Positions 1,346 through 44,605 of a DNA stretch of 60,000 nt are shown one piece after another. Location: assembly GCA_038087875.1 (NCBI GenBank), contig CM075988.1, forward strand, positions 15,936,001 through 15,996,000, in the 5' to 3' direction. The position numbers and the translations under genes were made by a program. Under the pieces are notes generated by a model. It saw nothing but the letters and a program-made list of their open reading frames with translations. It did no database searches and was not told the DNA's origin. Each line of letters starts with the position of its first letter. Within the stretch, counting starts at the first letter, position 1. The DNA comes from Malacoraja senta. Lineage: Eukaryota.

Positions 1346-1519
1346 GATAGACACAAAATTGTGGAGTCACTCAGCGGGACAGGCGGACAGTCTGAAGAAG
1401 GGTCTTGACCCGAAACGTCACTATTCCTTCTCTCCAGAGATGCTGCCTGTCCCACTGAGTTACTCCAGCAATCTGTGTCTATCTTTGGGGTATAACCAGC
1501 ATCTGCAGCTTCTTCCTAC
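1346..1519 (+). mobile_element. Short Penelope-derived fold-back element with intact hammerhead core
   Basis: Inverted arms tagacacaaaa..ggagtcactcagcgggacaggc / gcctgtcccactgagttactccagc..tgtgtcta enclose agt-CTGAAGA-A-GGGTC-tt-GACCC-GAAA-C-GTC-act (1389-1422). Degenerate TSD acttaataacatata (1331-1345) / acttattaacgtgta (1520-1534). Confidence 0.8.
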
Positions 1520-1615: not shown

Positions 1616-3359
1616 ACTTGCAAAAGGATAAGATGTCAAAATCTAAATGAGGGATGTTGATGGGATAATATTTGGATAAGATACACCAGAAATGGGTTTT
1701 AGTGACGTATTTAAGAAGCTTGCATGTGGATTAATGGTCCTTGGGATGGGATACACGCTGAGGTCACAGTGAGAGTAACAGGAAAGATGTGATTGCTCTG
1801 GAATTAGTGCAATCGAGATTTGAGGATGTTGCCAGGACTGGAAAATGTAGCTTTGACAGAAGATTAGATAAACTAGAGTTGTATTCCTTGTACTAGTGGC
1901 AGCTGAATGGTGACTTAATGGGATGTATACAATTATGAGCTGCTTATATTGTGTAAATGGGAAGGATCTATTAATCTATTTCCCAAAGCACAGGGTCCGA
2001 AATAGGGATCATAATGTTTTAGATGGGATATAAGGGGCGAAGAGTCATCCATAAAACTCTCACACATAAATTGTTTAATGAAATGGGACATTTGCACACA
2101 GGAAATATCAATGTGATAAATGACCAGGTCGGGTAATGAGTTCTGGGAATGAGGTGTGAGAGGGTGTTACGGTTGAGTTTATAGTAGACAGCGAATAGCC
2201 AAGGGACCATATAAATTGCTCTGATGTTTTTTTAATTAATTTTTATTTGCACAGGTTAGAAATAGGAACTTGTAATATTTTCAAGCGTACTGCAGCGGTA
2301 GGTAAATGATAACAACCTCTACCCCATGTGACAGACGTAGCGTTGAGTTAAATTTAGTTTGGAATTGTAGGCTGTGAGTTCAATTTGTTTGTGCAGGACA
2401 TGGAATTTTGTTTTGACCAGGCTGTAAGCCTGGCCACGGAGGCTAGGTTTTTAATTGGGAAAATTATTAATCTGAGCTTGGTTACGAGCCCAGGTCTCAT
2501 CTGATTTTCTAGGGTTCATGCATCCACAAATTCTGTTCCAGAGTATAAGAGCCAGCTTTTCATTTTGTTAATGGGTCACTTAACACTGGTGTCGAGTGAC
2601 CATTTGCCATTGCGGAGCTGCAGTTTTAGCAACGTTTGGTTTAAAACAAAATTCTGGATCAAGTTGCAGGAGAGAGAACGAGTGAATCACTCAGTGACTG
2701 AATGACAGTGTGAGAGGAGACGGTGGGAGGGGAACGGGGCCTCAAGCAGATCAAATCCTGATCTCAATTCCAGCTCGATGGACAATCTTTGCACAGCTGA
2801 ACATTTCAGATTCTTCGGGCAGATTTGAACTAAGATTGCAGAGACGGAATAAAGCAGTAAGTGGGAAAACCTACAGTTTTGTTTTCAAACCTTGTATGAC
2901 TGCACAGAAGCAGGATTAATGTAGCACTCTAAAATAGTGATGGAACTTAATTCCCTTCAGCATAGGTGCACGAGAAGTGAAAGAGATTAGGCATGCACAA
3001 TCGATGGGGTTAGGGTGTGTACGGGCATGGCTAAGGTGTGCAGGGATAGGCTGGGTGTGCCTGTGTAGGCGGTGTGTGTGTGCTCATATGTGGATGAGTG
3101 CATCTGGGATATGAAGGTATTTGGGGGAGGAGTATGGGCATGTCTACTTGAATGTTGTAAAAGGCCTCCATGTGTAGGAGGCAGAAAGATAACCTTATAG
3201 GGGTGTATACAATCTGGAAGGGAATATAACAAATAAATGAATGCCACTTCTTCCTCCTAACACAGCAGACCCTTGGGTTTGTTTTATTATTAATACCAAT
3301 GGATGTTTTGTGAATCATGGGGGAGAGGGATTAATTACAAAAGGGACTGGGTTTCCTCT

Positions 3360-4623
3360 GCGCCTTCCTCCCTCGCAACATGGACCCGCTCAGTTCGCAT
3401 TACCGTCCGAACAGATCCACGGACGATGCGGTCGCCCAGGTTCTGCACACCGCTCTCCTCACCTTGACAGCCAGAAGGGGGGCTATGTGAGGGTGCTGTT
3501 CATTGACTTCAGTTCAGCCTTCAACACGATAGTCCCCACCAGACCTCCTGAGAAGCTGCTGGAATTGGGGCTTAACACCCCCCTGTGTGCCTGGGTCCTG
3601 GACTTTCTCCAGGTAGTCAAGATGGGAGGAAATACATCAAAGACCCTCACCCTGAGCACAGGATCCCCCCAGGATTACGTCCTCAGCCCCCTACTGTACT
3701 CTCTGTACACAAATGATTGTGTGGCTAGGTTCAGCTCCAATCTGTAATCAAGTTTGCTGATCACACTGTGGTGGTGGGCCTGATCACCGAAAATAATGAG
3801 AAGGCCTACCGGGAAGAGGTGGCTGATCTGGCACTCTGATGTCAGGACAACAGCCTCCTTGAATGTCAAAAAAACGAAGGAGCTGATCGTGGACGTTAGG
3901 AGGACACAACATCCGAGGATGTACACGCCACTGAAGATAAATGGGGATACTGTGGATAGGGTGAGCTGCTTTAAATACCTGGGAGTCCACATCTCAGAGG
4001 ATCTGACATGGACATCACACGCTGCCGCACTGGTGTGTAAGGCAAGGCAACGCCTTTACCACCTCAGGCAGCTGAGGAAATTCAGAGTCTCTCTGAGAAT
4101 CCTCCAGTGCTTCTACTCAGCGGCTGTAGAAAGCATCTTGTCCGGAAACATCACAATCTGGTTTGGGAACTGCTCTGCCCAGGACAAGAAGGCTCTGCAA
4201 AGAGTAGTGCGTTCGGCCGAACGCACTATGGGAACTACACTCGCCTCACTGCAGGAACTATACATCAGAAGGTGTAGATCCAGAGCCAGCAACATTATGG
4301 GGGACCCCTTCCACCCCAGCTGCTACGGTCAGGCAAACGCCTCCGCTGTCATGCTGTGGAAACAGAGAGGATGAGAAGGAGTTTCTTCCCAGAGGCCATT
4401 AGGACTGTAAACTCTTATCTCACCAGGGACTAACTTACTGTACCAATTTACTGTTGTGTTGTGTCTTTTTAAAATTGCTGTTTTTTTCTATCAAATATGT
4501 AATTACTGATTCTGTTCTGTTTTGTAGGGGTTTTTTTGCACAATCCGCAAGCATTGCCACTTTTCATTTCACTGCACATCTCGTGTGCGTATGTGACAAA
4601 TAAACTTGACTTGACTCGACTTG
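3360..4623 (+). mobile_element. Rex1/Babar-type LINE, 5'-truncated and frameshifted RT plus C-terminal domain
   Basis: [81 protein letters not shown]. 3' end aataaa(cttga)n at ~4599-4623. Confidence 0.9.
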
Positions 4624-4649
4624 TTAAGAGTAGCTCTCTCTTTGAGTCA

Positions 4650-5580
4650 GAGTCAAGTCAAGTCAAGTCACATTTATTTATATAGCACATTTAAAAAACA
4701 ACTCTCGTTGGCCAAAGTGCTTTACATTTGTTATAAGAATAGCACAAAACAAACAAACTACATACATATATACATGTAGCCCTCACTCAGAGAACGTCTG
4801 GAAAGGCTTGGGAGTATAGATAAGTCTTTAGTCTTGACTTAAAAGAGTCGATGGAGGGGGCAGTTCTGATGGGAAAGGGGATGCTGTTCCACAGTCTAAG
4901 GGCTGCAACCGCAAAGGCGCGGTCGCCCCTGAGCTTATGCCTAGACCGTGGGATATTCAGCAACCCCAAATCGGCTGATCTGAGGGGCCTGGAGGTGGAG
5001 TGGTGGGTGAGAAGACTTTTTATGTAGGTGGGGGCAAGCCCATTGAGGGCTTTGTAGACATAGAGGAGGATCTTGAAGTTTATACGGAACCGCACAGGGA
5101 GCCAATGGAGAGAGGCCAGGATCGGGGTGATGTGGTCCCTTTTTCGGGTGCCCGTCAGGAGTCTCGCTGCGGCGTTTTGGACCAGTTGCAGGCGGGACAG
5201 GGAAGATTGGCTGATGCCAGTGTAAAGGGAGTTGCAGTAATCTAGGCGGGAGGAGATGAATGTGTGGATGATCTTTTCGAGGTCATCAAACTGGAGGAAT
5301 TGTTTTATTTTAGCTATCGTCCGAAGCTGAAAGAAGCTAGCTTTTACCACGGCATTGACTTGTTTGTCAAATTTCAGTGCTGAGTCAAATATCACGCCAA
5401 GGTTTTTGACGTGAGGTTTGAGTAGTGGGGTAAGGCTTCCAAGGCTGCCTGCTATCATTTTGATTGAGTCCGAGGGGCCGAGAAAGATGACCTCAGACTT
5501 ACTCTCGTTTAGTTGGAGGAAGTTCTGGGCCATCCAACACTTTATATCCTCGAGGCAGTGGGTTAGGTTAAACAGATTTA
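4650..5580 (-). mobile_element. L2-clade LINE, 5'-truncated, with uninterrupted C-terminal ORF (4787-5533)
   Basis: WMAQNFLQLNESKSEV, VKNLGVIFDS, SSRLDYCNSL, LQLVQNAAARLLT, HITPILASLHWLPV, GDRAFAVAA..LWN. 3' tail (ttgac)n. Confidence 0.92.
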
Positions 5581-6217
5581 AAGAGAGATCTTATGGAGTT
5601 CAAATCCCAATTCTAGATTTGGGCGCAAGGTCTAGGCTTTTGCTCAGAATATAGCACTTGTGAGGTATGATACTCATATGATGTTAAAACCATCTCTCCG
5701 ATGGGTGTAATATAAATGTTTCCAGATTACAACTAGTACTATGTGCCAGTCATAGTCATACGGCATTGAAACAGGCCCTTTGACCCAACTCGTGCACACC
5801 GATCAAGATACGCCATCTGCCCTTGTTCCACCTGTCCACTTCTGGCCCATATCTCTCTACACCTTTCCTATCTGTGTACCTGTCAAAATGTGTTTTATAT
5901 GTTGTTATAGTAGCTGCCTCAACTATCTCCTACAGCAGCTCATTTCATTCACCCATCACGTAGTGATTCCAGAAATCCAGAAAATGGATGCATGTGTGAA
6001 GGGAAGGTTTTAAATTTTTGGGGAACTAAAATTGTCTCTGAGGGATGTCGAACCCCCCCCCCCCCCCCCCCACACACACAAGCTAGGCAGGTGGCATCTT
6101 AGCAGAAGAACAACCAATATCATCACTGAATGGCAGGGGATGGATTGCATGTGCTTATGGTAAGGATTTAAACCAACTTGGCAAGGACAATGGGAGCCTG
6201 AGGTTAAAATCAGAAGA

Positions 6218-6312
6218 CAGACACAAAGTGCTGGAGTAGCTCAGCAGAACAGGCAGCATCTCTGGAGAGAAGAGATGGGTGACATTTCAGATCGAGACCC
6301 TTCTTCAGACCC
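6218..6312 (-). mobile_element. Penelope-derived short element with hammerhead motif
   Basis: Reverse complement of 6277-6312 reads GGGT-CTGAAGA-A-GGGTC-tc-GATCT-GAAA-T-GTC-ACCC, followed by the family's 3' tail. Confidence 0.75.
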
Positions 6313-7028
6313 TTTGATTGAAGAAGCGTTTCTCTGGAATGGATTAGAGATAACATAACGGGTCATTCAAATACCAATGACACCACTTTAAAGGCACATC
6401 TCCAAAATAAGTTTCTCAAGTCAAGTCCTGTGCTTGCCTGGAAAAGGCAATTGACTGGATAATTATTCAAACCCCCAGATATGCGCTTGAATTCCATTTA
6501 TTATTAGAGAAAATTGAATTAAAGTATACTAGGATTGAACAAAACGATTAAAACAACACAAAATGTGTATTCTTAAGAGCTGAAAGTGAAAAGGAAAATA
6601 TGTTATTAATTAGATCACTTTTAATCCTATGTTATCTCCATTTCCTCCTTTTAGTTTTTAAGATTATCCAATTATTGTATAATATTCTGATGCACTTTCA
6701 TGGATATTGACACAACTAGAAGTTGTTGCAGAATGAAATGTCAATGAAGTGTTCAGGTTAATCTCATGGTATTAAAACTCTAAAACTAACCAGGCTGTCT
6801 GCATAGCATAACATCCTATTTGTGCTTTTGCATGAGAGATACAGAACCAACCATAACAAATTAATACTTTGATAGTTTCCAATTCAATAGCATTAACATA
6901 AACATGGACCAAATTTCTGTGATTTCCAAATGCTAAGCTATCATGATACATTTCTGAAGAGCTGATATATTCTCGGGGGGATTGGACATGCTCCTTTGAG
7001 CAAACAGCTGGAAAGATGTACTGTATAT

Positions 7029-7106
7029 GAGCTGCCTCACCCGCTGAGTTTCTCTAGCATTTTTGTCTACCTTCGATTTTCCAGCATCTGCAGTCCTTCT
7101 TAAACA
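7029..7106 (+). mobile_element. Penelope-derived short element, 3' part only
   Basis: gctgcctcacccgctgagtttctctagcatttttgtctacc..ccagcatctgcag. Flanked by actgtatat at 7020-7028 and 7107-7115. Confidence 0.7.
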
Positions 7107-7953
7107 ACTGTATATTAAACAATCATCTTATGCAGCCTTTGTTGCCCATAGCACACGATTTGATACAATTTTACAGAGTTGTATGGCCATTAACTTTTAA
7201 GTTAAATACTGCATGGGTGAGTTTGTATATAATCTACAAGTATTGGGGATGTAATTTTGTTGAAATAATCTTTTACAGTGTGAATGTAATAGGATTGAGG
7301 CAAGTATATGGATAGATTATAGAGTAGGGAATAATTCTGCAGCCGTGCTTGCTGCTTTATGTAGGTTGGCGATGTTTTGCCTTGAATACGCTTTTCAAAT
7401 AGTTGACATGCTTATAAATTATCTGTATTATCAGGTATAAACAAGCAAAAGGATCAACATGTGAATGGTGAGATGCAAGATTTGTGGTCAAAGAATTTTA
7501 AATAGAGATAGTGTTTGGACAATTTCACTTCATACCTTTATTGTTTATAATGATCAAATGATAGTTTGGACTAATTTACCTTTGCTAGTCCACAGAACCT
7601 CTGTGGATTTGTCACAAACTGAGAAATTATTTTATTTGATGCATATAGCTGGCACCTTTGCGCAGTTTCTGTATATATTTCACATATTGTCAGTGTGAAG
7701 TGTGAACTAGTTTGCATTAAATGTGCAAACAGTTCCTTTCAGTAAAACCAATTTTGTAGCCTGTCAGTTCTTATAGCAACTAGCTTTATGACCCATTTAG
7801 GGAGGAGGATGTAGGAGGTAAATAATTATATTAGACTGTTTAGAATTTTTATGTTTTTGCAATGGACTGATGTTTTACAAGTAATTGATTTTTCTTCAAG
7901 CTCTGTTGGTATTGAATTATCCCTGTGGAAGAGATAGTGATAACCCACTATCT

Positions 7954-8264
7954 GGGCTGCATGGTGGCATAGCGGTAGAGCTACTGCCTTACAGCGCCAA
8001 AGACCCGGGTTCGATCCTGACTACAGGTACTGTCTGTCCGTAGTTTGTGGGTTCTCCCCATGACCTATGTGGGTATTCTCCGAGATCGTCGTTTTTCTCC
8101 CACACTCCAAAGACATACAGGTTTGTAGGTTAATTGGCTTGGTATAAATGTTTAAAAAATTGTCCCCAGTGTGTGTAGAGTAGTGTTAATGTGCTGGGAT
8201 CACTGGTTGGTGCGGACTCAGTGGGAAGAAGGGCCTGTTTCCACAGTGTAATTCTGAACTAAAC
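7954..8264 (+). mobile_element. tRNA-derived V-SINE (HE1-like), near full length
   Basis: A box tggcatagcggt, B box ggttcgatcc, V-domain-like gttctcccc..tcccacactccaaagac, CR1-derived tail gggcctgtttcc..aactaaac. Confidence 0.85.
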
Positions 8265-8307
8265 CCCAATCCTACCACGCAACACCTCAGAAGCTAGATC
8301 ATCAAAG

Positions 8308-8430
8308 TAGGTCTGAAGAAGGCTCTCAACCCTGGACATCACCTATCCATGTTCTAGATGCTGCCTGACCTGTTGATTTACTCCAGCACTTTGTGTCCTT
8401 CTATGTATTAACCAGTATGTACAGTTTCTA
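8308..8430 (+). mobile_element. Penelope-derived short element, degenerate hammerhead
   Basis: aggtCTGAAGAaggctctcaaccctggacatcacct (GAAA lost), followed by the gatgctgcctgacc..ttactccagcactttgtgtc tail. Confidence 0.65.
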
Positions 8431-11400
8431 GATTGTCCCATTCCTCCCCACAGCACCCCCAGAGTTATACGTTGTGAATCATATAAAGAGTTAATCTCCC
8501 ACCATTCTTTTGTGTTGTTGGAGGTACATATTGTGAGGTACTTTACTGCAGGAGTTCACAGTGTGTGAAGTACCTTCCTGGTGTTATGGATGGTGTGCAT
8601 ATGTAGTATTCTGGGGTACTCATGGTAGATGGGCCATTTAAGGAGACCTGCATTCTGCAGTAATACCAAGGCCATATGCAAATACAAAAATACTTTACTT
8701 TTGTCATTACTGAAGCTACATTTTGTTATCTCCTTAATTGTCTGGTGGACCTGCATTTGGTCTTCAGTGAAGTGTATAAGCAAACCCAGTCCCAATCCCA
8801 AACCCAATCAACACTACCCAATCTCTCACTGGTTAGCAAATCCTCTGCTTTTCTGTTATGTTCACCAAAGTGGATGACATCATGTTTTTTTTACATTGTA
8901 TTCCATCTGCTATTTTCTTGCCCACATACCCAGCTTTTTGGTATCCCAATGAAGCCTCTTTACGCATTCCTCTGTACTCACGCTTCCGCCTAGTTAAATA
9001 TTTACAGCAAACTTAGCAATAAGATATTTGAGCACCTCAGCCACATTTTTGGTATAGATTGGGAATAGGCACAAAAAATGATTTCTATATGCCTGTCAAC
9101 CTAAGAAGGATCTGCTTATTCCCATTCCTTTGCTTCATGTGCAATACTGAATTCTCTTTCCATGTCCATACATTAACCCCGATTCAATGTACTCTAACCT
9201 TGTTGACTAGCCTCCTGTGTGGAACTTGATCGATAGGGTTACAAACCGGCACTGATTCCATTTTATCATTCTCTTTGTCCCTCCCTTTCTTCCTCCTTTC
9301 TTAAAGGGTGTGGTCATTAAACAAGAACAATTGCTCAACCTTTTGAATCCTGGAAGATGACAACCAGAGTCTCTGTCAAAACCTTATAATCATCATGGAT
9401 AACTTTTCTATATTGCAAGCCAACTATCCCCACCCATCTGAGAATGGATTGATTGTTTCAATTTGCAAAGATGCACCCCAGTTAACCCAAACCTTTCTGG
9501 CCTGACTTTAATTTCTTCCTAACCTCGAGGTTATTTCCATTATATTCGAAACATCCAAATGCCTCTTAAAATATTATTTTGTGCTGATGTCTCTCCACTC
9601 TCTCTATGGAATATTCATACTTTCTTAGGGTGTGAGTTATGCATGCATACCAGGGGAGTGGTTGCCTGTAGCTATGTGACATGATGACAAGACATAGTAA
9701 TGTGGATGCATGGAGGAATTTCCTTGCTAACTTTTGGCTCCAATCCGGTCTTTGGACATTGTAGTCTGGGAACTGAATCAATGGGAGTGGCCTTAAACAT
9801 AATTGCTCGCTACTGCTCGTCTATTTCTGAGGCGGACTTGTTTCTACACCTCAGAAGCAACTAAACTGAATTAGTAACTCCAGACAGACGATGAGCATAC
9901 ATTCATGTGGCAACACCATGGGTGCCTCCAATATCCTTGGCTCAAATTGGTCTGTTCTCAATCTAACTGGATGTCCTCGATCATATAACCGTGAGCTGTT
10001 TTCTGTTTTGCTCGGGGAGGGCTGGGCGATGTTCAGCCAGAACATTAGACATTTGCCAGGCACTGAAATGTTGAAGGTGGGGTGGGGGGGAGGGGGAGTT
10101 GGTGGTAGATACATGGGAGCAGTGGCATAGAAGTGAAGGTAAATGATTTGAATGCATGGTTTCAAATTCCAGCTTGGTTGCTGGGGAATTAAAGTTCAGA
10201 TTCGTAAAATATTCATGACTTTTAAAACAGAAATTAGCCACTTGGTGACTATGATGCTTGCTGCAAAACTATCTGGTTTACTCTAATTTCCTTAATAGAA
10301 GGGAGTCTGTATCCCTTACATGGTTTTGCTCATCTATGACTCCAGACCCACAACATTCTGGTTACGTCGTAACTGGCTTAGCAAGCAAGTTGTGTCAAAT
10401 ATTTCCATGTTAAAACATAACAAGAAAACTGAGCAGATCACGTGGCATTGACCTGGTCACCAGATTAGCACAGGGCAAAGACATTCCCAATCCAATCAAT
10501 CGCAGAAGTAGTTCATGTGAATATCTGGGAATTGGTGTTCGCATTTGGAGAGCTACCTCACAGACTGTCTTTTAACCTCTCACCGTGGTCTCTGGGAACC
10601 TCTGTCATATCCAGTAAGGCAGGTCCATTAGTTATGGTAGCAGATAAGTATTTAGTTGCAAAGGAATGGCCCTGCAAATCCTAATTTAGCATTGCCTCTG
10701 GACCCCATGATAACCTATGGCATCAATGAATCCCATTTTCATCCTTATTGGACAACACTTGAAAGCAGCACTGAAAATGGGACACCATTGTCCTGTGTTG
10801 GGGATTCACTGTTTATTGTCAAGAGTAGGTTGGTAACACTGACATTGATAGATCTGAAATATTTAGCTTCTAAACTGTGTTTGTGGCAGGTGATGAGATC
10901 TAAACAAGGACCTCGCCCTTGCCAATTCATGTTGTAAATGCTTTTGTTCCTGGTCTCTGTGTGTACTGTCTGCAAAATGCACTGCAAATATTCAGCAGGA
11001 GTATATAGCACCTCACAAACCACTGGAGAACCTTGTATGAGGTCCTATAAACCTATGATTTCATAATGTTGAAGGGCAAAGGCAGCAGTCTCATTTGAAT
11101 GGTCTAATTTGTAAGTTCTACTCCTAGTCATACGGACATGTCAAAAGGCATTTCTAACATGGCCAATAAAAAGTTGTGGAAATTTTCTCTAGCCTGAACA
11201 CCTGAAAAAGCTGCCGAGGTTGAAAATGGCTGATTTTCAAATATCGTTAATTAAGGATATTCAGGGTACTGAACTCAGGCTGGAAGATGATCACCCTGGC
11301 TCTAATTTACTCCTTTCCATTGTTCTTGGAAAAAAATCAAATTGTTGCTCTAAAGCCAGGAGAAAGTTGAGACCGGCGAGAGTTTGTAGTTTAATTAATA

Positions 11401-18201: not shown

Positions 18202-18589
18202 GTCACCAATTTGCCCCCAAGTACAATATGGGTTCTCTACAACCTATAGGATATTGTTTCTGCTTAAAAAATGTTAAAAGCCTTTTACACTTGTTAAAGG
18301 CCATTCATTGTCAAGAGTTAAGAGTGTTTAATTGTCATATGCACTGCGTCTGGAACAATTAAATTCTTACTTGCTGCAGTTTTACAGGCACATTAAATGC
18401 ACCAACACAACAAATAAATGTACAGTAAATTATCAGTTATACTAGGAAAACAGACCACAATAGTATAATCTTTGGAGAGAAGGAACAAGTGATGTTTCTG
18501 GTTGGAACCCTTCTTCACACCTTTCTTCTCTCTAAACCAGCATCTACAGTTCCATCCAATCCATAATAGTTCCGTTCTGACGTAATGTG

Positions 18590-24188: not shown

Positions 24189-24280
24189 TGTCTGAAGAAG
24201 AGTCTCGACCCGAATCATCACCCATTCCTTTTGTCTTGAGATGCTGCCTGTCCCGCTGAGTTTTTGTGTCTATCTTCTGT
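24189..24280 (+). mobile_element. Penelope-derived short element, degenerate hammerhead
   Basis: tgtCTGAAGAagagtctcgacccGAATcatcacccattcc..gatgctgcctgtcccgctgag. Confidence 0.7.
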
Positions 24281-26038
24281 AAAACTGTTCTGTTTTACAT
24301 TGTTTTGCTCTTGGTGATCTCAATATTCAGACTTGGGACACAGGAGGTGACATTTGACCCATTGAGTCTATGCCCACATTCAGAGCCTTCCCATCAGTTT
24401 TCTTCTCAGACTTGCTTCCCCATCAGTACCTTCTCTCACATGACCATCAACTTCCCCTTGATTCTCCTGACACTCACCTACACCAGCAGCAATTAACCTA
24501 TCAACTAACATACCTTTTCGATCTGGGATACATAGATACATAGAAAATAGGTGCAGGAGTAGGCCATTCAGCCCTTCGAGCCTGCACCGCCATTCAATAT
24601 GATCATGGCTGATCATCCAACTCGGTATCCCGTACCTGCCTTCTCTCCATACCCCCTGATCCCTTTAGCCACAAGGGCCACATCTAACTCCCTCTTAAAT
24701 ATAGCTGATGAAACTGGAACATTCGGGAGAGACACGTGGTTATAGAGAGAACGTGCAAACCCCCTCTCACAAACCCCACCTATGTCACGACTGAACCTGG
24801 GTCACTGGATCTGTACTACCTGCTGTACAGCTTGGCTGGCCTATCTCTGTCACTTATGTACAAGTTATGTGAACAACTGTTCTAAACAGAGTTCAGAGTG
24901 CATGAATATATCTATCCCTTGGTGATAGGCTGCAACCTGTAACATTTGTTCACCTTTAGTTGTCTCCAGTGACAGTAGTTTTCCGATGTTTCAAGTCTGA
25001 CACTGAACCATCACTCGGATTCCATAATCCTGGTCCAGAATGGATCATAAGAGTAGAACTCTTTAATTTTTACGTGTTGCCTTACCACAGCATGACTATT
25101 CCAGTTATGGAAATTTAGTTTATTATTGTTCGGTGTGCCGAGGTACAGTGAAAAGCTTTTGTTGAGTGCTAACCAGTCAGCAGAAAGACAATACATGATT
25201 ACAATCGAGCCATCCACAGTGCACAGATGCATAATAAAGGGAATTTGTACATTCAACTCTGAAACAAAATTTCTCCTCTCCTGAAACTTGTTTTGCTCCT
25301 TAATTTCATACTTTTGTCCTCATGCATTCACTCAGATATCTACATGCCTCTCCATGATCTGTTCATTAATGCTGTAAGCTTTGATTTGTCAAATATATTA
25401 AATCCAGGAACCAGAAATACAAAGAAAGAGTTTAATATCATATATAATCAGTACTGTACCTGAGCTGAAACTAGTAAGGCACTGATCAGTCATTGTGCAG
25501 CACTGCAATGCAGTACTGGTGGGATCAGATCTGACACTGCATAATACTAAGGTAGAGTACTGGTGAATGTAAAGGGGTCTTGATGTAATGCTGGGGTACT
25601 CGTCAGTAAAGCAACATGTATTCATGCAACACCTTCAGCATCCCAAAGCAATTAGGATAGGGATTAATTAAAAAACAGATCAGAGAGAGCGATTTAAAGG
25701 CGAACCTAGTGGGAAGAAGGATAGAATGGTTCAGGGCACTGGAGATGTAATAAGGCATTTTTTAAATGGTGTAAATATGTGATTTGAAAGTTATCTTGAG
25801 GCCAAGGGGATGCCATGGTTACAAACAATCTGATTCAGCCTCAAGACAGTTGCCAAGGATAGTGATTAAACTACGACGATAGATCATAGCAGATACAGGT
25901 CTTTTACTAGAATGCTAAAGAATGTTACTAGTGAGTATGAATCTATTATGGGGTACAAGTCTATTACTGAGACTGGTGTATTCTTCTTATACTGGGGTAC
26001 AGTGCTACTCGTGGGTGCAGATCTATTTCTTTATACAA

Positions 26039-26237
26039 GGTAGACACAGCGTAACTCAGCGGGTGAGGCAGCATCTCTGGAGAAAAGGAACTGGCGACGT
26101 TTCGGGTCGAGACCCTTCTTCAGACTGATGTCGGGGAGGGGGCGGGACAGAGATAGAATGTAGTCGGAGACAGTAAGACTAGTGGGAGAACTGGAAAGGG
26201 GATGGAGAGAGAAAGCAAGGGCTATCTTAAATTTCTT
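26039..26237 (-). mobile_element. Penelope 3'-end fragment (ORF stop, 3' UTR, intact hammerhead core)
   Basis: Minus strand reads aatttaagatagccc...catcagtCTGAAGAagggtctcgacccGAAAcgtc. TSD tatttctttataca at 26024-26037 recurs at 26238-26251 and 26255-26268. Confidence 0.8.
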
Positions 26238-26974
26238 TATTTCTTTATACATTTTATTTCTTTATACAACCATATTAATCTAATACATCTTACTTAAGAT
26301 AATAACCAAAGAACTACTAGAAGATCTTTTTCAGAATTTTTTTACATTAATAAGACTGATGTTGGCAATATATTTTGTAATATCAACATGCATTTTGCTC
26401 AACGAATAATGGATTAAAATGTGGAAATAAACCTGATTAGTAAAAGCATGGGCGACAAATGATGACTTCCCACTGGCAGATATTATTGTCAATATTAAAA
26501 TGGTAACAATTTGTAATATTAAACAAGTTCTAAACTGCAGATGTAGGAAATTTGAAATAAAACCTGAACATTCTGCAAACATCCAGTAGTTCAGGCAGCA
26601 TCTGGTAAAAGAAAAACCTGTTAAAATAGCAGGTCAAAACTCCTTCAAAGGAACTGAAAAAAATGAGAAAACAAGTTGGTTGTAATTAGCAGTTGAATGC
26701 GGAGCAGGGATGCATTGGACAGAGGAAATATTTTGGTAGGATGTTGCCAAGGTTGCTGGGGTAATACATTGTTTACAAAGCTGTCTGATTTTAGATTAAT
26801 GAGGGCAGTGAAATGCAGGTCAGAACTATTGAAGAGAACTAAAACCAAAGGAATGTTAGAAATGATCAGCATACCAGGCAGCGTCTGTGGGGGGATAAAA
26901 AAACAAGTTCATGGTGCAAATGGATAAACTTTCAGCACCAATGGCCAGTTCTGACACAGAGAGAGAAAGCAAAT

Positions 26975-27140: not shown

Positions 27141-27231
27141 GTCATACCAGTGGACTAAACAAGTGTTCTTCTCAAAACGTTCTGCAGTAGAGTAGACCAC
27201 AACATGAGATGATAATGATCCTTCGCCTCTC

Positions 27232-27335
27232 CATCCATCAGTCTGAAGAAGGATACTGACCTGAAACGGCTTCTGTCCATTTCCCTCCACAGATACTGAC
27301 AGGCCCGCTTAGTTCTTCCAATAGTCTGTTTTTGC
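27232..27335 (+). mobile_element. Penelope-derived short element, diverged hammerhead
   Basis: catcagtCTGAAGAaggatactgacctGAAAcggc..tccatttccctccacagatactgac. Confidence 0.6.
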
Positions 27336-27912: not shown

Positions 27913-29554
27913 ATGGCTGTTCACTAAATCATAAATGCACCCGCCTTGCCAATTTATTCTGTTCCTTTTGATTTCCGTTCTCTGCAGCAGTACTGACTTC
28001 CAATACACATGCTTCACGTTCCTTTATTTTCCATCCCAGCCCTTAGTGATGTATCAATCAGACAGCTTTGTTAATGGTGCATCACCTTGGCAACCCAGGC
28101 CTTGCCCTGTTCCTTTGTCCTATCCTTCCACCCACACAGTCTGCCTGCAATTGAAAACTAATCTGCTTTCACACTATCCCAGTTCTGATGAAGGTGCTTT
28201 TAGTGTGACCCATTAGGTCTGATTCATTTTTCCACAGATGCTGACTGACCTGCTGAGTATTTCCAGTATATTCATGTTTATATTAACTACACCTTTGCTG
28301 AGATGGATTAGGCCTTGTATTTAATAAATGTTTTAGCCTCCAGGTAATGTTTTGCAGCAGAACATTGGGAGATAATGAAAGTTAGTGTTTACTCCTTAAG
28401 TTCTCACAGAAGTTATTTTCAAACTTCCTTGCTCATCTGTCAATTAATATCTCCCTCTCTTTTGCATTGTCCCTCCGTGGGGCACTCTCCTTCCCTTCTG
28501 CGCTCACCTACTGTGTCGCTTGCCCCATCCTTCCCGCATCCTCCCTCTTTCCTGTCTCCCTCACTCCCTATCCCCTCCTCACTCTCTCTCGTCCTCCCAA
28601 CTTGTGTTATCGCCCCAACCTTCTTCCACCCCATTCCAAACTCTCTGGCTGTCTCACATACTCTTTCCACCCCCCCCCCCCCCTGTACTCCCTGGCCTCC
28701 CATATCATATTGTCTGCCCATCCTAGTCCGAATTCCTGCTCCTTGTGCAGTTTAACCTGCACCTTACTTGTTTCATTCGAGTAGCTTGTGTTTGAAGTTC
28801 CAGTGGGAACTAGCCTGACACTTTCAAAACCTTTCTTGGGGTCTTGGCTCTTTCTTCTGGAGTGTTCTCTGACGAATTTCAGTCTACAGCCACCATCCTG
28901 TCTCTTGTTGACAAAAGTTTGTTCTCGCTTCAGGTCCAGGTCCCATGCCAGCTTTTTGGCGCTGTTACAATAGCACACAGTTTTCGGCAGCTTTACTTTG
29001 GCTTCTGCCTCGTGCTCTCTGTGCAACAGCTTGTTTCCAAGGTTACGTGGCCTGTGCCAGTTGCAGCTCCCCTGTTGGTAATCATTCGACAACGAGAAAA
29101 ACTGTGGTACTTAAAGTCGGGAAGCTGCAGAGTCCTGGAGCTGTGTGGAGGTGTAGAAATAGCAGCACCGTGAAACCAAGGTTAGAAATTGCGCAGGGGG
29201 TATGAACAAGGCACTTGCCCCACTATGTTATGGCTGGCTAAGACACCATCATTTCAGTTCAATAAGTCACCATGATTTGTTTCCTGTCTTGGGTGTGGTG
29301 ACTTGTGGAGCAGCTGAGAAAGAGACAGTGTAAGGTGGTGCCGAAGGCAAATTGACATCCTTCACATCTGACCCTCAGTGCTGCACGCCTTGACACTACC
29401 CTGTCTAGCATGCAAAGTGGTGGTCCACTCTGCTCCACGCTCAAGAGCCAACATTTCCCTCACCAGCAGCATTCACCCACCCCACCCCAAGGTATAGCAT
29501 CTATTCTTTGCTGGGATCCCTGATGTATGTGATTATATAACCAGGACTGAAATG

Positions 29555-32631: not shown

Positions 32632-32810
32632 ACACAAAATACTGGAGGAATTTGGTGGGTCAGGCAGCATCTGGGGACCGTATGGACAGGTGAACTATCG
32701 GGTTGGGACCCTTCTTCAGATTGATTCAGAAGGGTCCTGACCGGAAAGGTCACCTATCCTTTTTCTCTAGAGATGCCGCCTGCCTGCAGAGTTACTCTAG
32801 TGTTTTGCGA
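32632..32810. mobile_element. Head-to-head inverted Penelope-derived short element, degenerate
   Basis: acacaaaatactggagg..gggacccttcttcaga / agaagggtcctgaccggaaaggtcacc..gagttactctagtgttttg. Confidence 0.7.
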
Positions 32811-33075
32811 CTCTCTTTGCAATAATTACAGCCTGTCTAGTTTCACTCGCATTCTGTGTATAAATGTTAAAATCCCATTCCTTGCTGCAGCCAGCAGGAG
32901 TTCACCACGCGCATTCTTCCACCCTGTCCTGTTCATCCACACACTTCCACCCACCCACGAGCCAGTGGATAGTGGTCAGAGCAAAAGCCTGGCTGAAATC
33001 TTCCCACTTTACAAACCAGGATTTACCAAGGCCAGTCACACCAGCCCCGCGAAGAAGATGTCAATCACTGTCTTG

Positions 33076-33242
33076 CCTAAGAAGGAACTGCAGATGCTGG
33101 TTTAAACCGAAGATAGGCACAAAAAGCTGGAGTAACTCAGCAGGGCAGGCTTCTTCGGGGTCTCAACCGAAACGTCACCTATTCCTTCTCTCCAGAGATG
33201 CTGCCTGTCCCGCTGAGTTACTCCAGCTATTTGTGTCTATCT
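33076..33242. mobile_element. Fold-back Penelope-derived short element, hammerhead 5' core deleted
   Basis: Inverted arms enclose gggtctcaaccGAAAcgtc. TSD tcaatcactgtcttg (33061-33075) / tcaatcactgccgtg (33243-33257). Confidence 0.8.
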
Positions 33243-36200
33243 TCAATCACTGCCGTGTGGGTTTGCTAGCTGCACCCACACGGGGAGAAAATAATAAAGG
33301 GCAGCAAGCTGTAGCAGGTCAGGCATTGTGTACAGCGAAACAAGGTTATCACTTCAGCTCAGTGACAGTTCCAATGAAAGAACATCCACCTTAGACGTTA
33401 ATTATTCTCGGTCTCCATGGAGTATTTCTAATTTTTGGGGGGTTTAATGTCAAAGTTCCAATGTCGTACTTTTCTTTTATATTGTCTACCATCCTATTCC
33501 CATATATTAGGGCAGAAATAGTAGATGATGAGAAAAACGGTTTCTCAGTCTCCATATTTAAACTGTGTGTTTGCGTATACTGTATTTGTGGGCGTAAGTG
33601 TCTGTCTATTTTTTTCTATGTGTGTCAATAGCTGATTCTTGTATCCGTATTTCGCTCTGCATGTTTATAAGGTCATTTTGTTACAGCAAACAAGCCCAGA
33701 CCTGCCTGTAAACATGACTCCCTCTCTCTGTAAACCAAAGATCTATGATCTTTGCTGTAAATGCTCGCTCGCTGCTGTGTTGTCCTGCAGTGTAGTCTGG
33801 GATATTTGTAATCAAAGCAGTTGCCATAGTGACCACAGGAAGCTGTTTAGCTATGTTGGAAGTAATGAACATGCTGCCTGATATCGAGAGAAGAATGAGA
33901 AATGGAAGTAGGTTTTTTTGACTTGTTCAGTTTTCCTCATCCCAAACTTTGTTCTCTTTGTACATACTGCAAAGTCTCTGATCTGTGCTGTAAATCTACA
34001 AAGTTCTGTATTAACTTCAGAGGGACTGATTCCTGCATATTTATTTCTGTGTTTATCAGTGCCAGCACAGATTCTCAGGGTAGGTTCATCTTGAGCTAGA
34101 CTCTGAGTAAAGCTCCCTCTGGACTGTCCCATAGGACATCCTTGTGCCAGACACAACAACAATTAGATAACATTAGATCCTCTATACTGTTCCAAGAAAC
34201 ATTCTCAGGATGGGCACAGACCAGGCTAGATGCAGACTAAAGCACCCTCCGTACTGGTCCAGCTGAGGGGCACAGCACCTGAATGGTGCTCCCCAGTGCA
34301 CAAACAGTATTTCCACGCCCCATTTACCACAGTATCTTGCAGCTGAAGATCACACACAGGTTATGCCACTCTCACTCTCTTCCGCTGCCTCCCCCACGCG
34401 CACTTGACTCGGAGCCTACGTGAGAGACATTTCTCTGAACAACTTGGTGGACGGTGAACTTGAATCTCAGAAAGAACAGGACAATGCTTCATGCTCTCTG
34501 CCTGACATTTGGAAATGGAAGATGCAGTACTTTTAGAAGGCTTGTCAAAGCACATATTGAAGCTGTGATTCCTGGATCCAACTGCTTTGTTTGAGTTTTT
34601 ACTCTTCTGCAAGCAGTATTTTGGAAGTTTATGCATGTTCTCCCCTCATCTGTGGTCTCATCAAGTCCAGCTATCATTGATATTATAGATGGAAGGCCAT
34701 GGATGGTCAGGATAAATTCTGAGGAGCATTGTGTAAATAGAAGATTGAAAGGTGAAAGTGATGCAGTTGAGGCCTTTACAGTGTTAACAGGATTTGTTAC
34801 AGTGGTTTAACTTAAAGTGTTTCCGCTGGTAAATATTTAGATGTGGGAATTAGAAACATAGAACATAGGTGCAGGAGTTGGCCATTCGGCCCTTCCAGCC
34901 ATTCAATATGTTCATAGCCGATCATCCAAAATCAGTACCCCTTTCCTGCTTTTTCCACATATCTCTTCATTCTGTTAGCCCTTGGAGCTAAATCTAACAC
35001 TCTTGATAATATCCAGTGAATTGGCCTCCACTGCCTTCTGTGGCAGAGAATAAACAGTGTTATGATGATGGGTCTGATGACTATACTATTGAGAATGAGT
35101 TAAACTGCCTATATTTGTCCTTCTGGAACATGCTGCTGGTATTAGGCATGTATAAGTTGGTAATACTGTATATTTGCCTTAAAGCAACAACGCTGAAGGT
35201 TCGATTCCCTGAACATAAATATCTAGTCTAACAAGCTAGTCCATATCAGGGAATGTTATATTGACAGCAGTACCAACAAATAAAATGGCCCTACTGCATG
35301 GAAACAGGCTCTTTGGCGCACCTTGTCCATGCTGACCAAGATCTGAGCTTGACCCATATCGCACTAATCCTTTCCATAAATATTAAACCAAGGCTTACTG
35401 TTCCTTCTCAGACAAACATGAAGTTTTGCAGCACAACCTAAAATAAATGCAGGGAATTATCTCGGGTCTATTGTGCATTGTGCTCTGACTTATTAACATC
35501 ACACACAAAAAGTTATATTGTTGTTTTCATGTTACTATCTGTGGATGGCATATTTATTCAGCCAGTAACCATGTTTTCCGCATTACAATTGTGTGATAAT
35601 TGTGTACATCATTGCACATAAAATGTTTGAGTGGAGTCATATAAATTTACAGTGTTTTGGAGGCTGAAGAGTCATTTTGAATACTGTAATCCAAAAGCGT
35701 GGGGCACATTTTCCCTGAGTAGAATTGTTCATTTTAAATTGACAAACCAAGCTGCAGAATAACCAAGTGGGGATTAAGATGTTTCCTGTGCTTCGGTGGG
35801 TAACTCTCCCAGCAACTTTGGGGAAAAGGAATAGGTGACATTTCGGGTCGAGATCCTGCTCCAGAGATGTTGCCTGACCCGCTGAGTTACTGCAGCATTT
35901 TGTGTGTATTCCAGTTGATGAATGGTGCTCGATTTTCGCTGGCACCGAGGAGGTTTACCGACAGCCACTGGATAAGGCGAGAGGTGCAGGTGACGGTTCC
36001 CGGCCCATCGGGGAACGAGTTCCTCGGGAGTTGGAGCAGAGTTGAGCTGGAGTTAGCGCTTCTTCTCCGCGCTGACTGTAAGCCTGGGGCCACCACTGCT
36101 CCGGGCCGGTGTCCCATCAGTCCAGGGGTCACCCCGGACATCTCCGGCCACCCTCGGACAGTGATGGAACACTCGGGATGGGACGGGGACGGTCCAGTAG

Positions 36201-38935: not shown

Positions 38936-39368
38936 TTTTCCTCCTTGAATGAAATGAATCAGGGTTTTACCAACAATCTGTCAGTTTCCTGCTCTCTGTT
39001 GGACTGTTCAATTATTAAATTATTTAAGTTAGATTCCCTATTGGCTGTGATAAGGTTTGAACTTGTACTGCAGAGAGAGAGGAGTCAGAGTGGTCCCTTT
39101 GAGTGAAGAGCTCATCACCAATGGGCTTTGGAGTGGCTAAGGTCATCCATGATAATGTGGGAGACTTCCCCGAACAAGGTGTAAGATGATGGGTGTTGGC
39201 CAGAAAGTGGTGTTACAACAAGCACCCTGAATATTATTGGTCCCTGCACAAGAGAGGCAGGGTGGGAGTGGGGGGAATTGGGGGGCAAATGCTTTAATGG
39301 TCTGACGTGTGTTTCTTTCACCGGCAGTAAATGCGAGGTGTGGCCTTCTGTGTGAGGTCGAGGTTGAC

Positions 39369-40067
39369 ATGTCACGGGTCTCATCGTCCACCACCAAGCG
39401 GATCGGGAACTACTCGAACAGCACCTTCACCAGCCCCCACTATGGCTCCTCGTACCACAGCTACAGCCCCAACCTGGGCACCAACTACGTGGACAAGGAC
39501 AAACTGCTCTACAAGCCGATGTACCCCAGCTACATCCCCCGCGCCAACTCGGGCAGGGTGGCCAGCAAGTATGCCCTGGAGGTCGACCGTGGCCGGCAGC
39601 TCCCTCGGCCTGAGGTGCTGAGTAGACGCAGTGAAAGCTTGAGCCGGGCTCCCTTCAAGGCCTTCCCCGCTGGATTAAGCGGAGGGTACTCCAGCACCTA
39701 CGGTTACAGCACGGGGAGCAGCCCTTCCACTTACACATCGCCCGCGTTGTCCCTGAGTCGAAGGAAATCCATCAGTCAGACGGAACTGAACCGGGACCTG
39801 CTGAACCTTCACATGGTGGATACGTACCAGCTGAACACTGTGAAGAGCCCCTCGCTCAGTCGACGTGACGCAGACCCCCACCAGGTATCCCGCAGGAGTG
39901 AGGTTGGAGATGCTTACTGCACCAAGGGCTCTGGTGCTTATGGCCTGCCACGCAGTGTGACACAAGAGACCATAACCGCTTCGTTCAAAAGCACGGACCG
40001 CTTCAGCCCAGCCTGGGAGAGGAGTGGGAGCAGCGGCAGCTGTGGGTCGCCCGTCCGAGACACACCA
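39369..40067 (+). CDS. USP2: USP2 (ubiquitin-specific peptidase 2, long isoform) first coding exon, 233 codons, phase-0 donor; catalytic-domain exons not found in window
   Basis: ORF MSRVSSSTTKR...DKDKLLYKP...EVDRGRQLPRPEVLSRRSESLSR...GLSGG...SRRKSISQTELNRDL...SPVRDTP resembles the Ser/Tyr-rich N-terminal extension of vertebrate USP2a (DRGR..RP, RxES, SQ.DL.RD, SP.RD motifs). Polypyrimidine tract plus CAG acceptor ends at 39327. CCA|GTAAGT donor at 40068. Codon third positions are GC-rich against an AT-rich background. Confidence 0.9.
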
Positions 40068-40624
40068 GTAAGTGCGGGGTTGGCATAAAGATCAAACTGC
40101 TGAGTGGATGCAATCATAGGCAGCTTTTTTTTTTCACCTTTTCATGTATATGCCCATTCCTCTTCTGATTCTCTTCCCACAGCCCTTTAAGTCTGTTTAA
40201 AAAATCCTCTGTAGGGAGTTGACACATTTGGAAGTAGGGAAGTTAAAAAAATTTGCAATGTATACGTTTGTTTAGCAGATTACAGACGCACTGTTAATGG
40301 TTGGTATGTCTGGCAGTAGTGGTGCTTGCATGGGTATGGATTAGTCCGTATACATCAGGTGGGTGGAGGGGCACCCACCGAAAATGTTGGAGATGCCTGG
40401 CAAGGTGAGCAGCATCTGCTAAGTGACCTTTCCCAATCAGAAGCATGAACTCTGTTTCTAGACTTTGACCGCTTCCGATGTTTTCTGTTTTCTGGAGTAT
40501 TTTGTTTTAAATCAACTACGGTACGGTCGCTAGCTTTCTCGCATCCTAGCCAGATTATTGTAGTTCAAAATCTATTCCAATTTCTTGGACAAAAAGGTCT
40601 TGGTGGATGTTTAAGTAAATACCG

Positions 40625-41340: not shown

Positions 41341-42940
41341 CATAATCATGTCTGTGAAAGCTGCCTCACGCTCCCCTTTTTTCCTCCTGCTAACCATTAG
41401 TATGCATCCGCATCCCGTGTATTCCTCCATGGATTCACTTGATCGCAGCTGCCTTTACCTGACCCATGACTTTTTTTCTGACTGACATCTCTCATCATCG
41501 AGGGTTTTCACTTCCAGCCAGTCTTTTGTTTTTTCTAACAATAACATGCAAATCTTGAACTCTCGCTATCTCACTTTTACAATCCTCCCAATTTGTCAGG
41601 TGTCCATTTGCCCACAAACAACTTACTCAATTTCTGTGACCTCTTGTCTGATACCATCAAAATTCTCCGTGCCCCAACTTAGAACATACTCCATGTGGCA
41701 CTGGGAGTATTTCAGAGATTGCGACCCACGAAGCCCTGCTTTTTATTAATTTGCCCAGCACTCTACATTTTCTCTGCAGGTCCTCATTCTTTTTGCTGCC
41801 TGTGTCACTTTCTACCAAAGTGATGTTTCCATCACTTAAATTTATTTTTTAAACAGGCGAATAATCCAAACCAGTGTTTGAAGGGAAACTGAGGCATTCA
41901 TTACTCTTTGCTGAGAGATTCAGTGTAAGAATTGTGCAGAATGCTATACCTTAACTATCTGTGGGGAGAATTTATTAATAGGTTTGATATAGAATTAATA
42001 TAAATGGGTGGTTGATGGTTGGTGTGGACTCAAAGGGCTGAAGGGCCTGTTTCCCCACTATATCTCTCTGACGTTTTTGACTCGCAGTAGTTTCCCAGAA
42101 AAATGCCTGAGGAAAATGTTTTGATCAGACTTACCAATATATATATATCAAAATAAAATCTGTGTATATTGATGCAAACTTCAAGTAACAAGGAATTTTA
42201 TAAGGAAAGTTTCTCACATGCTTCTTTCTCTATCTTTCTGGTTTTTAATGTGTGGTGTGGATGGTGGATAAAACTGCCTATTTTTTTTTCATGTTGCACC
42301 TGGAAATCTTTAAAAATTACCTTAGCCAGTCAGATCTAAATGAACCTCTGATCTGAATGATGGCATCTTTATGAAGTACCACTTCCCAATTTTACACCAG
42401 TGTCGGCTTCAAGCCTTGTGACATGGGCTTTCAATTCTAGAGGCAAGTGAGCTAAATGAGTTGCCTCTGACCATGAAGACAGTACAGTGGCTGGACTTGT
42501 GAAACGTAGGGGGCCGGCAGGTATTATCTAACTTGGTTCTGTTTATCCTGATTTGTTCTACATTCCAGGCAATCATTCACCTGCCAGTAACGGCCATGCA
42601 TGAATTAAACATTCAGCTCTGCCTCCAGCATGCTATCTGATGAATCTGAAACAGCCACAATTTCTTATTAGCAGAGAGGAAAGGGATATGGGTTTGACCG
42701 GCAGGAAATTACTGCATGTTCCCAGTACTGACTTGAGTACTGGATTCAACTGTAGCAATTCAAACCAATCCTGTTCATGCCTTGAAATGCAACCTATTTT
42801 TATTGCCTCAATCAAAAAGGAACAAAAAAAAATAATCGGCACCTTAAGTCTGTTCCATCATTTATTTCGGTCATGACCGATGCCACCGTAACTCCATTCA
42901 CCCAGAAGGTCACAAAGAGCTAGAGTACTGAAGACTGATC

Positions 42941-43070
42941 TGTCTGACGAAGGATCCCGACCCGAGACATTGCCTGACTATGTTCTCCAGGGAAGCTACC
43001 TGACCTGCTTAGTTATGCCGGCATTTTGAGTCCTATTGTGTAAACTAGCTTCTGCAGTTCCTTGTTTCTC
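42941..43070 (+). mobile_element. Penelope-derived short element, degenerate hammerhead
   Basis: tgtCTGACGAaggatcccgacccGAGAcattgcc, followed by the family's 3' tail. Confidence 0.65.
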
Positions 43071-43395
43071 CATTTACTCAGACATTGCTCCAGGTTTCTT
43101 AATACCCTTCTTATCGATCTCAACCTTGAGATCCCTTCACATCTAAACCCGCAATATTCATGGCATGTTTTTGGAGGGAGAGAAAATTGAAGAGTGGAGA
43201 TTTACTTTCTAATCACAATCTAAATTGCCTAATTTTAACTTTAAGGTTAAGTCCCCTCAATCTTGATTGTGCCTGGATAGGGATTTGGTCCCGGGGAGAC
43301 ACAAAAAACCTGCAGACGCTAGAAGCTTGAGCAAAAAACAAAGTGCTGAGGAAGGGATCTGACCTGAAACAACATCTGTCGAATCCCTCCACAAA

Positions 43396-44344: not shown

Positions 44345-44605
44345 TTGTAACTTGGTGCCAAACAACAAGCTCTCCCTCAATGTTAGCAAGACAAAGAAGA
44401 TTGTGATCGACTTCCAGAAGCAAAGCAGTACACACAGCATGTACATAGATGGCGCCGAAGTGGAGATGGTCGAGGGCTTCAAGTTCTTAAGAATAAATAT
44501 CACCAGCAATTTGTCCCTGACCAGCTTCATCGAAGCGATGGTCAAGAAAGCCCGTCAACGCCTCTGCTTTGTTAGAAGGCTTATGAAGTTTGGCAGGTCC
44601 CCAAC
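44345..44605 (+). mobile_element. Rex1/Babar LINE fragment
   Basis: NNKLSLNVSKTKKIVIDF..VEMVEGFKFL..KKARQRLCFVRRLMKFG. Confidence 0.8.

Follow-up and report, generated by a model that had tools for sequence, protein, structure and literature searches.

The closest described relatives of the repeat studied here are Penelope elements and the hammerhead motifs that they carry. A typical Penelope insertion has an inverted, 5'-truncated copy beside its 5' end and a tail of 30-40 bp at one end, as described in the available part of PMC8557442, and the accessible text of PMC3846280 gives the same anatomy of inverted copy and tail for rotifer Penelope insertions. For PAc, both target strands are cut and extended, reverse transcriptase (RT) starts internally at the borders of the tail, and hammerhead cleavage is not needed (PMC11167929). 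Mutants of the PAc hammerhead were without effect on insertion in vitro, and its cleavage required protein (PMC11167929). For head-to-head structures, self-priming on an antisense template has been proposed instead (PMC3846280, in part). The Penelope element of D. virilis possesses an internal TATA-less promoter, with transcription requirements contained in the 3' pLTR (excerpts of PMC2377424), and an Inr-like TCACT has been noted in a rotifer pLTR (PMC3846280, same portion).

Here we analyzed a window of 60,000 nucleotides from Malacoraja senta, in which Penelope pLTR pieces 70-200 bp long occur roughly once per 3 kb, giving ~19 insertions. The repeat is real, abundant and built from known Penelope parts, and it is not a retrozyme; the new part is its sharp 5' start and its scale. 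We propose, with a probability of roughly 0.58, that these are short pLTR copies of a Neptune-like Penelope, likely inserted by its own RT and endonuclease (EN) from an RNA that likely starts ~3 nt before the hammerhead core. Positions within the repeat are numbered with +1 at the C that opens the CTGAAGA core, which is window position 1392 in the copy at 1346-1519.

An earlier note on this DNA had listed 16 sites at which a Penelope 3' end recurs, and BLAST with the 1346-1519 copy and nine more probes showed that all 16 carry the repeat, which is the 3' terminal repeat (pLTR) of a Neptune-like Penelope element. Additional relics were identified by BLAST and core motif at 28.2 kb and 26.6 kb, and the 43.3 kb site proved to be a diverged subfamily, picked up via its core motif. 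Two of the listed sites, which had all been described as pieces lacking an ORF, are longer truncations: the one at 26.0 kb extends to around the ORF stop codon, and the one at 27.2 kb retains some upstream UTR. The core motif occurs ten times in the window, compared with 2.9 +/- 1.9 in shuffled sequence (0 of 100 shuffles reach 10). Eight of the ten belong to the family; the other two, at 45166 and 47269, have no other match to it. The motif at 47269-47292 (-) is hammerhead core-like, is not of the Penelope pLTR family by BLAST, lies within an apparent other repeat and is possibly due to chance. At least four subfamilies can be distinguished by eye in the alignment, and the 3' ends of the copies fall into two groups, at +85..+98 and +117..+128.

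Single short copies that start close to the core are found at 6202-6310 (-), starting at -2; at 8311-8429 (+), spanning -2..+122; at 24190-24276 (+), spanning -2..+94 with a target duplication (TSD) of 9/10 (p=0.03); and at 42938-43063 (+), an old copy spanning -6..+123. Two others start further in: 7031-7101 (+) spans +51..+123, lacks the hammerhead and has a 9/9 TSD, and 54271-54366 (+) spans +16..+117. The copy at 53453-53548 (-), spanning -4..+91, has an intact core and lies within a 23-24-bp minisatellite. That minisatellite (53397-53765) is split by the short copy, and an inverted piece of the target at the 5' junction suggests snap-back synthesis. Diverged copies include one at 27226-27329 (+) with a little upstream UTR, an old one at 28180-28284 (+) that was absent from the earlier list of sites, and one at 43296-43395 (+), with its core at 43346 and, by eye, an inverted tail piece apparently ahead of it. 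The longer truncation at 26036-26233 (-) is of the same subfamily as the 1346-1519 copy, extends back to the ORF stop region and has a 14/14 TSD.

The 1346-1519 copy is a head-to-head pair rather than one hairpin element. An inverted, 5'-truncated second copy on the minus strand (1345-1384, reference +54..+93) stands head-to-head with the main copy on the plus strand (1388-1519, reference -4..+128), which includes the 35-bp tail at 1485-1519; the junction between the inverted arm and the sense copy is 3 nt, and the tail is on the sense arm only. The left TSD (1331-1345), whose last base is common with the arm, matches the right TSD (1520-1534) at 12/15 positions, and the best flanking repeat found by script was 1327-1340/1516-1529 (12/14, p=0.004). 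The inverted arms of ~35 bp that were said to enclose the core are thus present in this copy (1345-1384/1445-1484, 34/40 identical), but they are not common to the family, as the six inverted copies have six junctions: +54/-4, -2/+90, -4/+5, +54/+9, +41/+8 and -4/+29. Because these junctions all differ, there is no fixed hairpin family within the window. We rejected a fixed hairpin family, or one resembling a MITE, on account of the differing junctions and the long TSDs. The 1346-1519 copy folds strongly (z = -8.45) because it is an inverted pair.

The five other pairs show the same arrangement with different extents. At 18468-18557 the minus arm spans -2..+50 and the plus arm about +90..+125, with a TSD of 9/10 (p=0.03); at 32632-32819 the arms span -4..+87 (minus) and +5..+96 (plus), and no TSD was found. 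The pair at 33078-33243 joins a minus arm of +54..+127 to a plus arm of +9..+94 within an exact TSD of 10/10, and the pair at 35810-35909 joins a plus arm of +41..+91 to a minus arm of about +8..+54, again with no TSD found. At 46752-46951, minus (-4..+89) and plus (+29..+128) arms are flanked by a 16/18 TSD. When the arms within pairs were compared to ask whether the two derive from different RNAs, they were 71-90% identical in four pairs and without real overlap in two. In the pair at 46752-46951, the second arm follows a 7-nt core piece (+4..+10) and starts where the hammerhead is predicted to cut, at +29/+30 (46846-46856); this is a single case. The pair at 33078-33243 also gives, at 33111-33242, a weak mir-1756 score (38.7 bits, where the cut-off is 100), and head-to-head pairs of this kind may be mis-annotated as miRNAs or enter dsRNA pathways.

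A 5'-truncated, ORF-bearing Penelope is present in the window at 45177-46116 (+), and it differs in subfamily from the 1346-1519 copy. Its GIY-YIG endonuclease ORF (45225-45923, +), open over 232 aa, shares 61-67% identity with proteins of sharks and rays that have RVT_1 and GIY-YIG hits; the window piece on its own gives a domain match of E=0.014. The ORF is followed by a 3'UTR and a hammerhead at 46029-46056, ~105 nt downstream of the stop. A CxxxxCxxC linker lies between RT and EN in all three full relatives (3/3), and in the window copy its last C is changed. Since a CX2-5CxxC linker is associated with Neptune in the available part of PMC8557442, we assign the element by this linker criterion as Neptune-like, probably Neptune rather than Nematis. 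In a separate observation, a skate neuromedin-U receptor gene model (P0004) ends with a piece of this endonuclease frame, probably through an annotation fusion.

The ORF-bearing copy is flanked by a 15/15 TSD (45162-45176 / 46117-46131). The TSDs, which had been given as ~14-15 bp in at least four copies, are real, with repeats of ~14-16 bp at 1345, 26031, 46752 and the ORF copy at 45177 (15/15). Across 18 insertions, flanking direct repeats reached p<0.01 in seven and p=0.03 in two more; of the seven, the repeat at 53453 was discounted since it sits in a tandem repeat. The short copies share both 3' sequence and TSD length with the ORF-bearing copy, in support of the suggestion that they ride on the Penelope RT/EN.

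At 1392-1419 (+), a match to the pattern in the available part of PMC4209133 predicts a minimal type I hammerhead, comprising CUGANGA, an extra A, stem II, GAAA, a palindromic ACGU and GUC, with the predicted cut after 1419. Every sequence mark of a minimal PLE hammerhead is found there and the core is intact, as the earlier note had stated; by pattern, it is intact in 6 of the 18 aligned segments. Stem I had been given as agt/act. These 3 bp are present in the 1346-1519 copy but arise from a 1-nt deletion private to it, and the majority has 2 bp, compared with a helix I of 4-5 bp in the minimal PLE hammerhead. The D. virilis hammerhead likewise has a helix I of 2 bp (PMC4209133, in part). The motif is minimal only, not a canonical type I hammerhead with loop 1-loop 2 contacts. 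Furthermore, the pairing said to be kept by the stem II variants is no sign of selection: the changes are mostly one-sided, from G-C to G-U, and 75% of cells pair compared with 76.5% in shuffles (443/500 at least as high). Covariation was not found in stems I and II, where the score lies under the shuffled mean (371/500 shuffles at least as high). The predicted fold buries the core in an alternative hairpin at ~+1..+46 in 7/7 folds, with a modeled stem II probability of <=0.04. A search of Rfam gave no hammerhead match at E<=1 and no tRNA match, with weak hairpin look-alikes only.

The core differs from the majority at fewer letters than the downstream region (7/143 compared with 72/565 in 15 rows, p=0.007), in a test that is biased because rows with a broken first half got later starts and that scores subfamily differences as divergence; over all 18 rows, 11/176 core letters and 101/667 downstream letters are off the majority. 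The catalytic G12, a CpG position, is changed in 12.7% of depth in contig run X1 and 11.9% in X8, and a downstream CpG in 11.6% and 13.3%. G12 decays at the CpG rate, which fits a neutral decay of copies with selection on source elements.

To examine the family at genome scale, contigs of 4 of 24 runs were aligned at 80% likeness on 25960-26300, which contains the copy at 26031-26240. The evidence comes from two related species: X1 is of organism A, possibly the source of the window itself, with 105,873 contigs, and X8 is of organism F, with 107,674. X18, probably DNA, showed a depth step that was steeper and head-to-tail joints that were deeper, both of which were excluded, and X24 consisted of 20 contigs only. 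The very large copy number proposed for the family is confirmed as at least of order 10^5, with >105,000 contigs per run. If the skate genome is roughly 2 Gb, as we assume, the density in the window corresponds to about 6x10^5 copies. Summed contig depth over flank depth is about 7x10^5, a rough upper scale and not a copy number.

The 5' ends of the copies are not distributed evenly. In the window, 9 of 23 arms begin within -6..-2 (p<=8e-5 against uniform ends over 100 nt, corrected for the choice of interval); arm starts were set partly by eye and the 43.3 and 26.6 kb relics were excluded from the 23. The other 14 begin elsewhere, from +5 to +90 or at -14 and further upstream. Among the contigs, summed depth falls across -4/-5 from 21.8M to 2.9M in X1 (7.5-fold) and from 7.9M to 0.74M in X8 (10.7-fold). 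Loose ends at -2 number 588 (X1) and 750 (X8), and at -3 they number 529 and 761, both sites being among the best six per run; their agreement is 0.31 (near-random) and their median length 151-214 nt, and therefore they represent unique, unrelated flank. Loose ends at -5, also among the best six sites per run, number 866 and 1226, agree at 0.39 and are pyrimidine-rich. Part of the depth step is thus an artefact, because these ends come partly from other subfamilies with different 3'UTRs. Since the UTRs of those subfamilies diverge just upstream of -5, the TCA at -5..-3 is common to the subfamilies, and it is unpaired in the majority hammerhead. The continuum of random 5' truncations that the earlier note regarded as evidence against a family is not what we observe; instead, the 5' ends peak at -2/-3.

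The contigs also contain 73 joints between copies. The eight opposite-strand joints among those listed have one arm at -5..+1 and the other at an apparent +34..+41, and there are 41 contigs at -3 in X1; no constant upstream exon was seen among the joints listed. The +34..+41 ends may mask +29..+33 because the reference copy differs there from the majority, and the cluster was not taken as hammerhead cleavage. Head-to-tail joints are rare, with 0-8 contigs per row and run among those listed. As a separate observation, each of the two species has a few contigs that seem to duplicate the hammerhead head-to-tail (reference 26093-26129, unit about 35-39 nt), at a depth of 100-300 compared with a flank of 30 (X1) or 7 (X8); this joint type is deduced from the intervening letters, and the contigs could adopt the dimeric fold required by minimal hammerheads.

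Our proposed mechanism begins with an RNA whose 5' end would lie at -2/-3 and would come from an internal Pol II promoter, with an initiator-like TCAGT whose A is at -3. We take TCAGT to be initiator-like by its consensus, which is short and often matched by chance. RT would start at two internal sites, +85..+98 and +117..+128, and the tail would be the stretch between them, as suggested by anole PAc in vitro. Starting either within a long RNA, in its first pLTR, or on the short RNA of a solo copy, the Neptune-like protein would produce the 95-130-bp unit by target-primed reverse transcription that preferentially ends at -3. Both nicked target strands would sometimes be extended and the cDNA ends joined, yielding head-to-head pairs with variable junctions. 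The hammerhead would be a passenger in the short copies, where it is single per strand, buried in the predicted hairpin and apparently decaying neutrally, and the source elements would be the target of any selection on it.

An RNA start at -3, as deduced from the copy ends, is likely. According to the available parts of PMC4209133 and PMC2377424, about 120 nt separate the start of the D. virilis RNA from the hammerhead downstream, made up of 46 nt and an intron of 75 nt. A protein scan identified ten distant loci with about 40% protein identity, five of which (L001, L002, L003, L006 and L008) have by pattern a family-type hammerhead in the same position, after the ORF; TCAGT lies ahead of the hammerhead in none of these five, and in L001, the one full-length relative, the pLTR begins at -118. 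The start in D. virilis, the distant relatives lacking TCAGT and the pLTR start at -118 all count against an RNA start at -3. L001 itself contains a 989-codon open frame, direct 201-bp pLTRs at 910-1110 and 3976-4176 and a minimal hammerhead, with its first ATG at the predicted cut site. A stronger version of the proposal, which we regard as possible but doubtful, is that the 95-130-bp unit is a self-contained retroposon with its own Pol II promoter (at -3) and an RT-loading hairpin, such that solo copies are transcribed and re-copied in trans. If this were true, it would be a Pol II-driven, Penelope-dependent 'SINE' at 10^5-10^6 copies in skates, and its 5' edge would be the Penelope transcription start.

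The strongest competing explanation, which we nevertheless consider unlikely, is that the short copies are dead-on-arrival 5' truncations of a full-length RNA: RT would clear the hairpin at +1..+46 and drop off at the C-rich tract just upstream, with neither a promoter at -3 nor a short family that is independent. The conserved hairpin is indeed present in the predicted fold, a second group of arm ends at ~+34..+54 falls at or near its 3' foot, and the subfamily of the 1346-1519 copy has an ORF-linked long form at 26031-26240. Additionally, most minimal hammerheads are single motifs, 'probably related to truncated PLEs' (PMC4209133, in part). However, a stall would be expected before or within the hairpin rather than 3 nt past it, and the conserved TCA at -5..-3 across subfamilies would be left unexplained. 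The pyrimidine tract and the CAG at -4..-2 could also be read as a splice acceptor, with short copies derived from chimeric spliced RNAs of host exon and pLTR. In D. virilis the intron has its 3' end at the 5' end of helix I (PMC4209133, available part), and the peaks at -2 and -3 are compatible with exons ending in G or AG. Yet the TSDs are only 0-11 nt from the 5' end and the head-to-head joints at -3 stand directly beside the other arm, so that scant space remains for an exon, and we consider this the least probable of all the explanations.

Transcription by Pol III from the opposite strand is improbable as well. In that explanation the unit would be an antisense SINE, transcribed from near +90 and copied from antisense RNA. 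Pol III A and B boxes had been reported as lacking, which is correct for the sense strand, but degenerate look-alikes of both boxes occur on the antisense strand. In two copies with the element antisense, 26052-26114 (+) and 46770-46832 (+), the boxes are 41 nt apart with 2 mismatches to a relaxed consensus (0/3000 shuffles), only three other window sites, with tRNA-SINE-like heads, are as good, and antisense templates have been proposed for head-to-head structures (PMC3846280, in part). Against the SINE consensus printed in the accessible part of PMC8969392, there are 3 mismatches in the A box and the boxes stand too far apart, at 41 instead of 30-35; what resembles a B box is the reverse reading of hammerhead stem II, the match is weaker in other subfamilies, 9 of the 14 segments tested, including ones that start at -2..-6, have 4-6 mismatches, the ORF-bearing copies have the same +88..+98 end, and Rfam gives no tRNA match. 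Good A/B box pairs do occur at 7965 (+), 27908 (-) and 19315 (-), where they are consistent with heads of tRNA-derived SINEs. The retrozyme-like label that was originally attached to the family also has to be dropped, as we found no tandem arrangement and a minimal rather than canonical hammerhead, one per strand, with the core buried in the predicted fold. A true retrozyme, in which double hammerhead cleavage yields a small circular RNA that is copied by the Penelope RT, is very improbable here. Such pLTR-derived tandem retrozymes are reported in vertebrates, one chondrichthyan included (bioRxiv 2026.07.22.740005, in part), and both the rare head-to-tail joints and, within the bias of that test, the better conserved core of the window copies would agree with one. 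However, none of the 9 TRF rows is a tandem array of the unit, G12 is mutated about as often as a downstream CpG in X1, few segments keep an intact core, and copies end at -3 and +88/+128, off the cut site (+28/+29), with one exception, the arm at 46852.

More than 100,000 short insertions naturally record where RT starts and stops, and their -3 peak, two 3' ends and junction spectrum are comparable with the in-vitro PAc model. The family bears on the Penelope transcription start, the role of the hammerhead and the origin of inverted ends. If solo copies are transcribed, skate introns and UTRs would contain cryptic promoters, hairpin RNAs and miRNA look-alikes in large number, and skates would, if the proposal is true, be among the genomes richest in hammerhead motifs. 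The window also contains a large USP2-like exon (39306-40088, +), of which 39366-40085 is 95% identical to a little-skate protein and <=86% to other rays and sharks, and many of the Penelope repeats probably lie within or near introns of this gene. Fragments of non-LTR RT frames are found at 3241-4374 (+), with an RVT_1 hit, 4787-5590 (-), 44343-44747 (+) and 51626-52503 (-), the two minus-strand fragments being near-identical to one another.

In searches of the openly accessible literature, neither this skate family nor solo pLTR copies with a fixed 5' start were found to be described. Scans by pattern had 0 matches in contigs from metagenomes, prokaryote genomes and viruses, and one searchable supplement of PMC4209133 contained no chondrichthyan terms. 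The skate motif resembles the minimal PLE hammerheads in the available part of PMC4209133 in its extra base after A9, its G10.1-C11.1 and its palindromic 15.2-16.2, and also in lying within an RT/GIY-YIG element's terminal repeat. Similarly, those hammerheads are mostly solo truncated copies with some opposite-strand pairs, as in the skate window. The counts given there are about 2,000-9,000 per genome, whereas here >100,000 contigs per run carry the Penelope end, and the fixed 5' start of solo copies seen here is not described in that portion of the paper.

Non-LTR retrozymes, as far as the accessible parts of PMC7229834 and bioRxiv 2026.07.22.740005 describe them, are also non-coding, hammerhead-bearing, related to pLTRs and presumed to be mobilised by Penelope. 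In contrast to the single or head-to-head skate copies with their minimal motif, they consist of tandem 150-450-bp units with at least two hammerheads on the same strand and a circular RNA. The bioRxiv text, in the part available, notes dispersed retrozyme monomers too and uses a definition that admits minimal motifs as well, and its tables may include this skate family. The Chlamys PLE derivatives such as MRC1 (PMC8557442, in part) are likewise short and have only the 3' end in common with their autonomous partner, but they have pLTRs, head-to-tail multimers and a body of their own, mostly without a hammerhead, whereas the skate copies are a piece of pLTR alone. The closest likeness in anatomy is to complex Penelope insertions (PMC11167929 and the available parts of PMC8557442 and PMC3846280), which have, as the 1346-1519 copy does, head-to-head arms, a tail on one arm, a TSD and two 3' ends. 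They differ in that in the skate window both arms are cut down to 40-130 bp, without an ORF between them.
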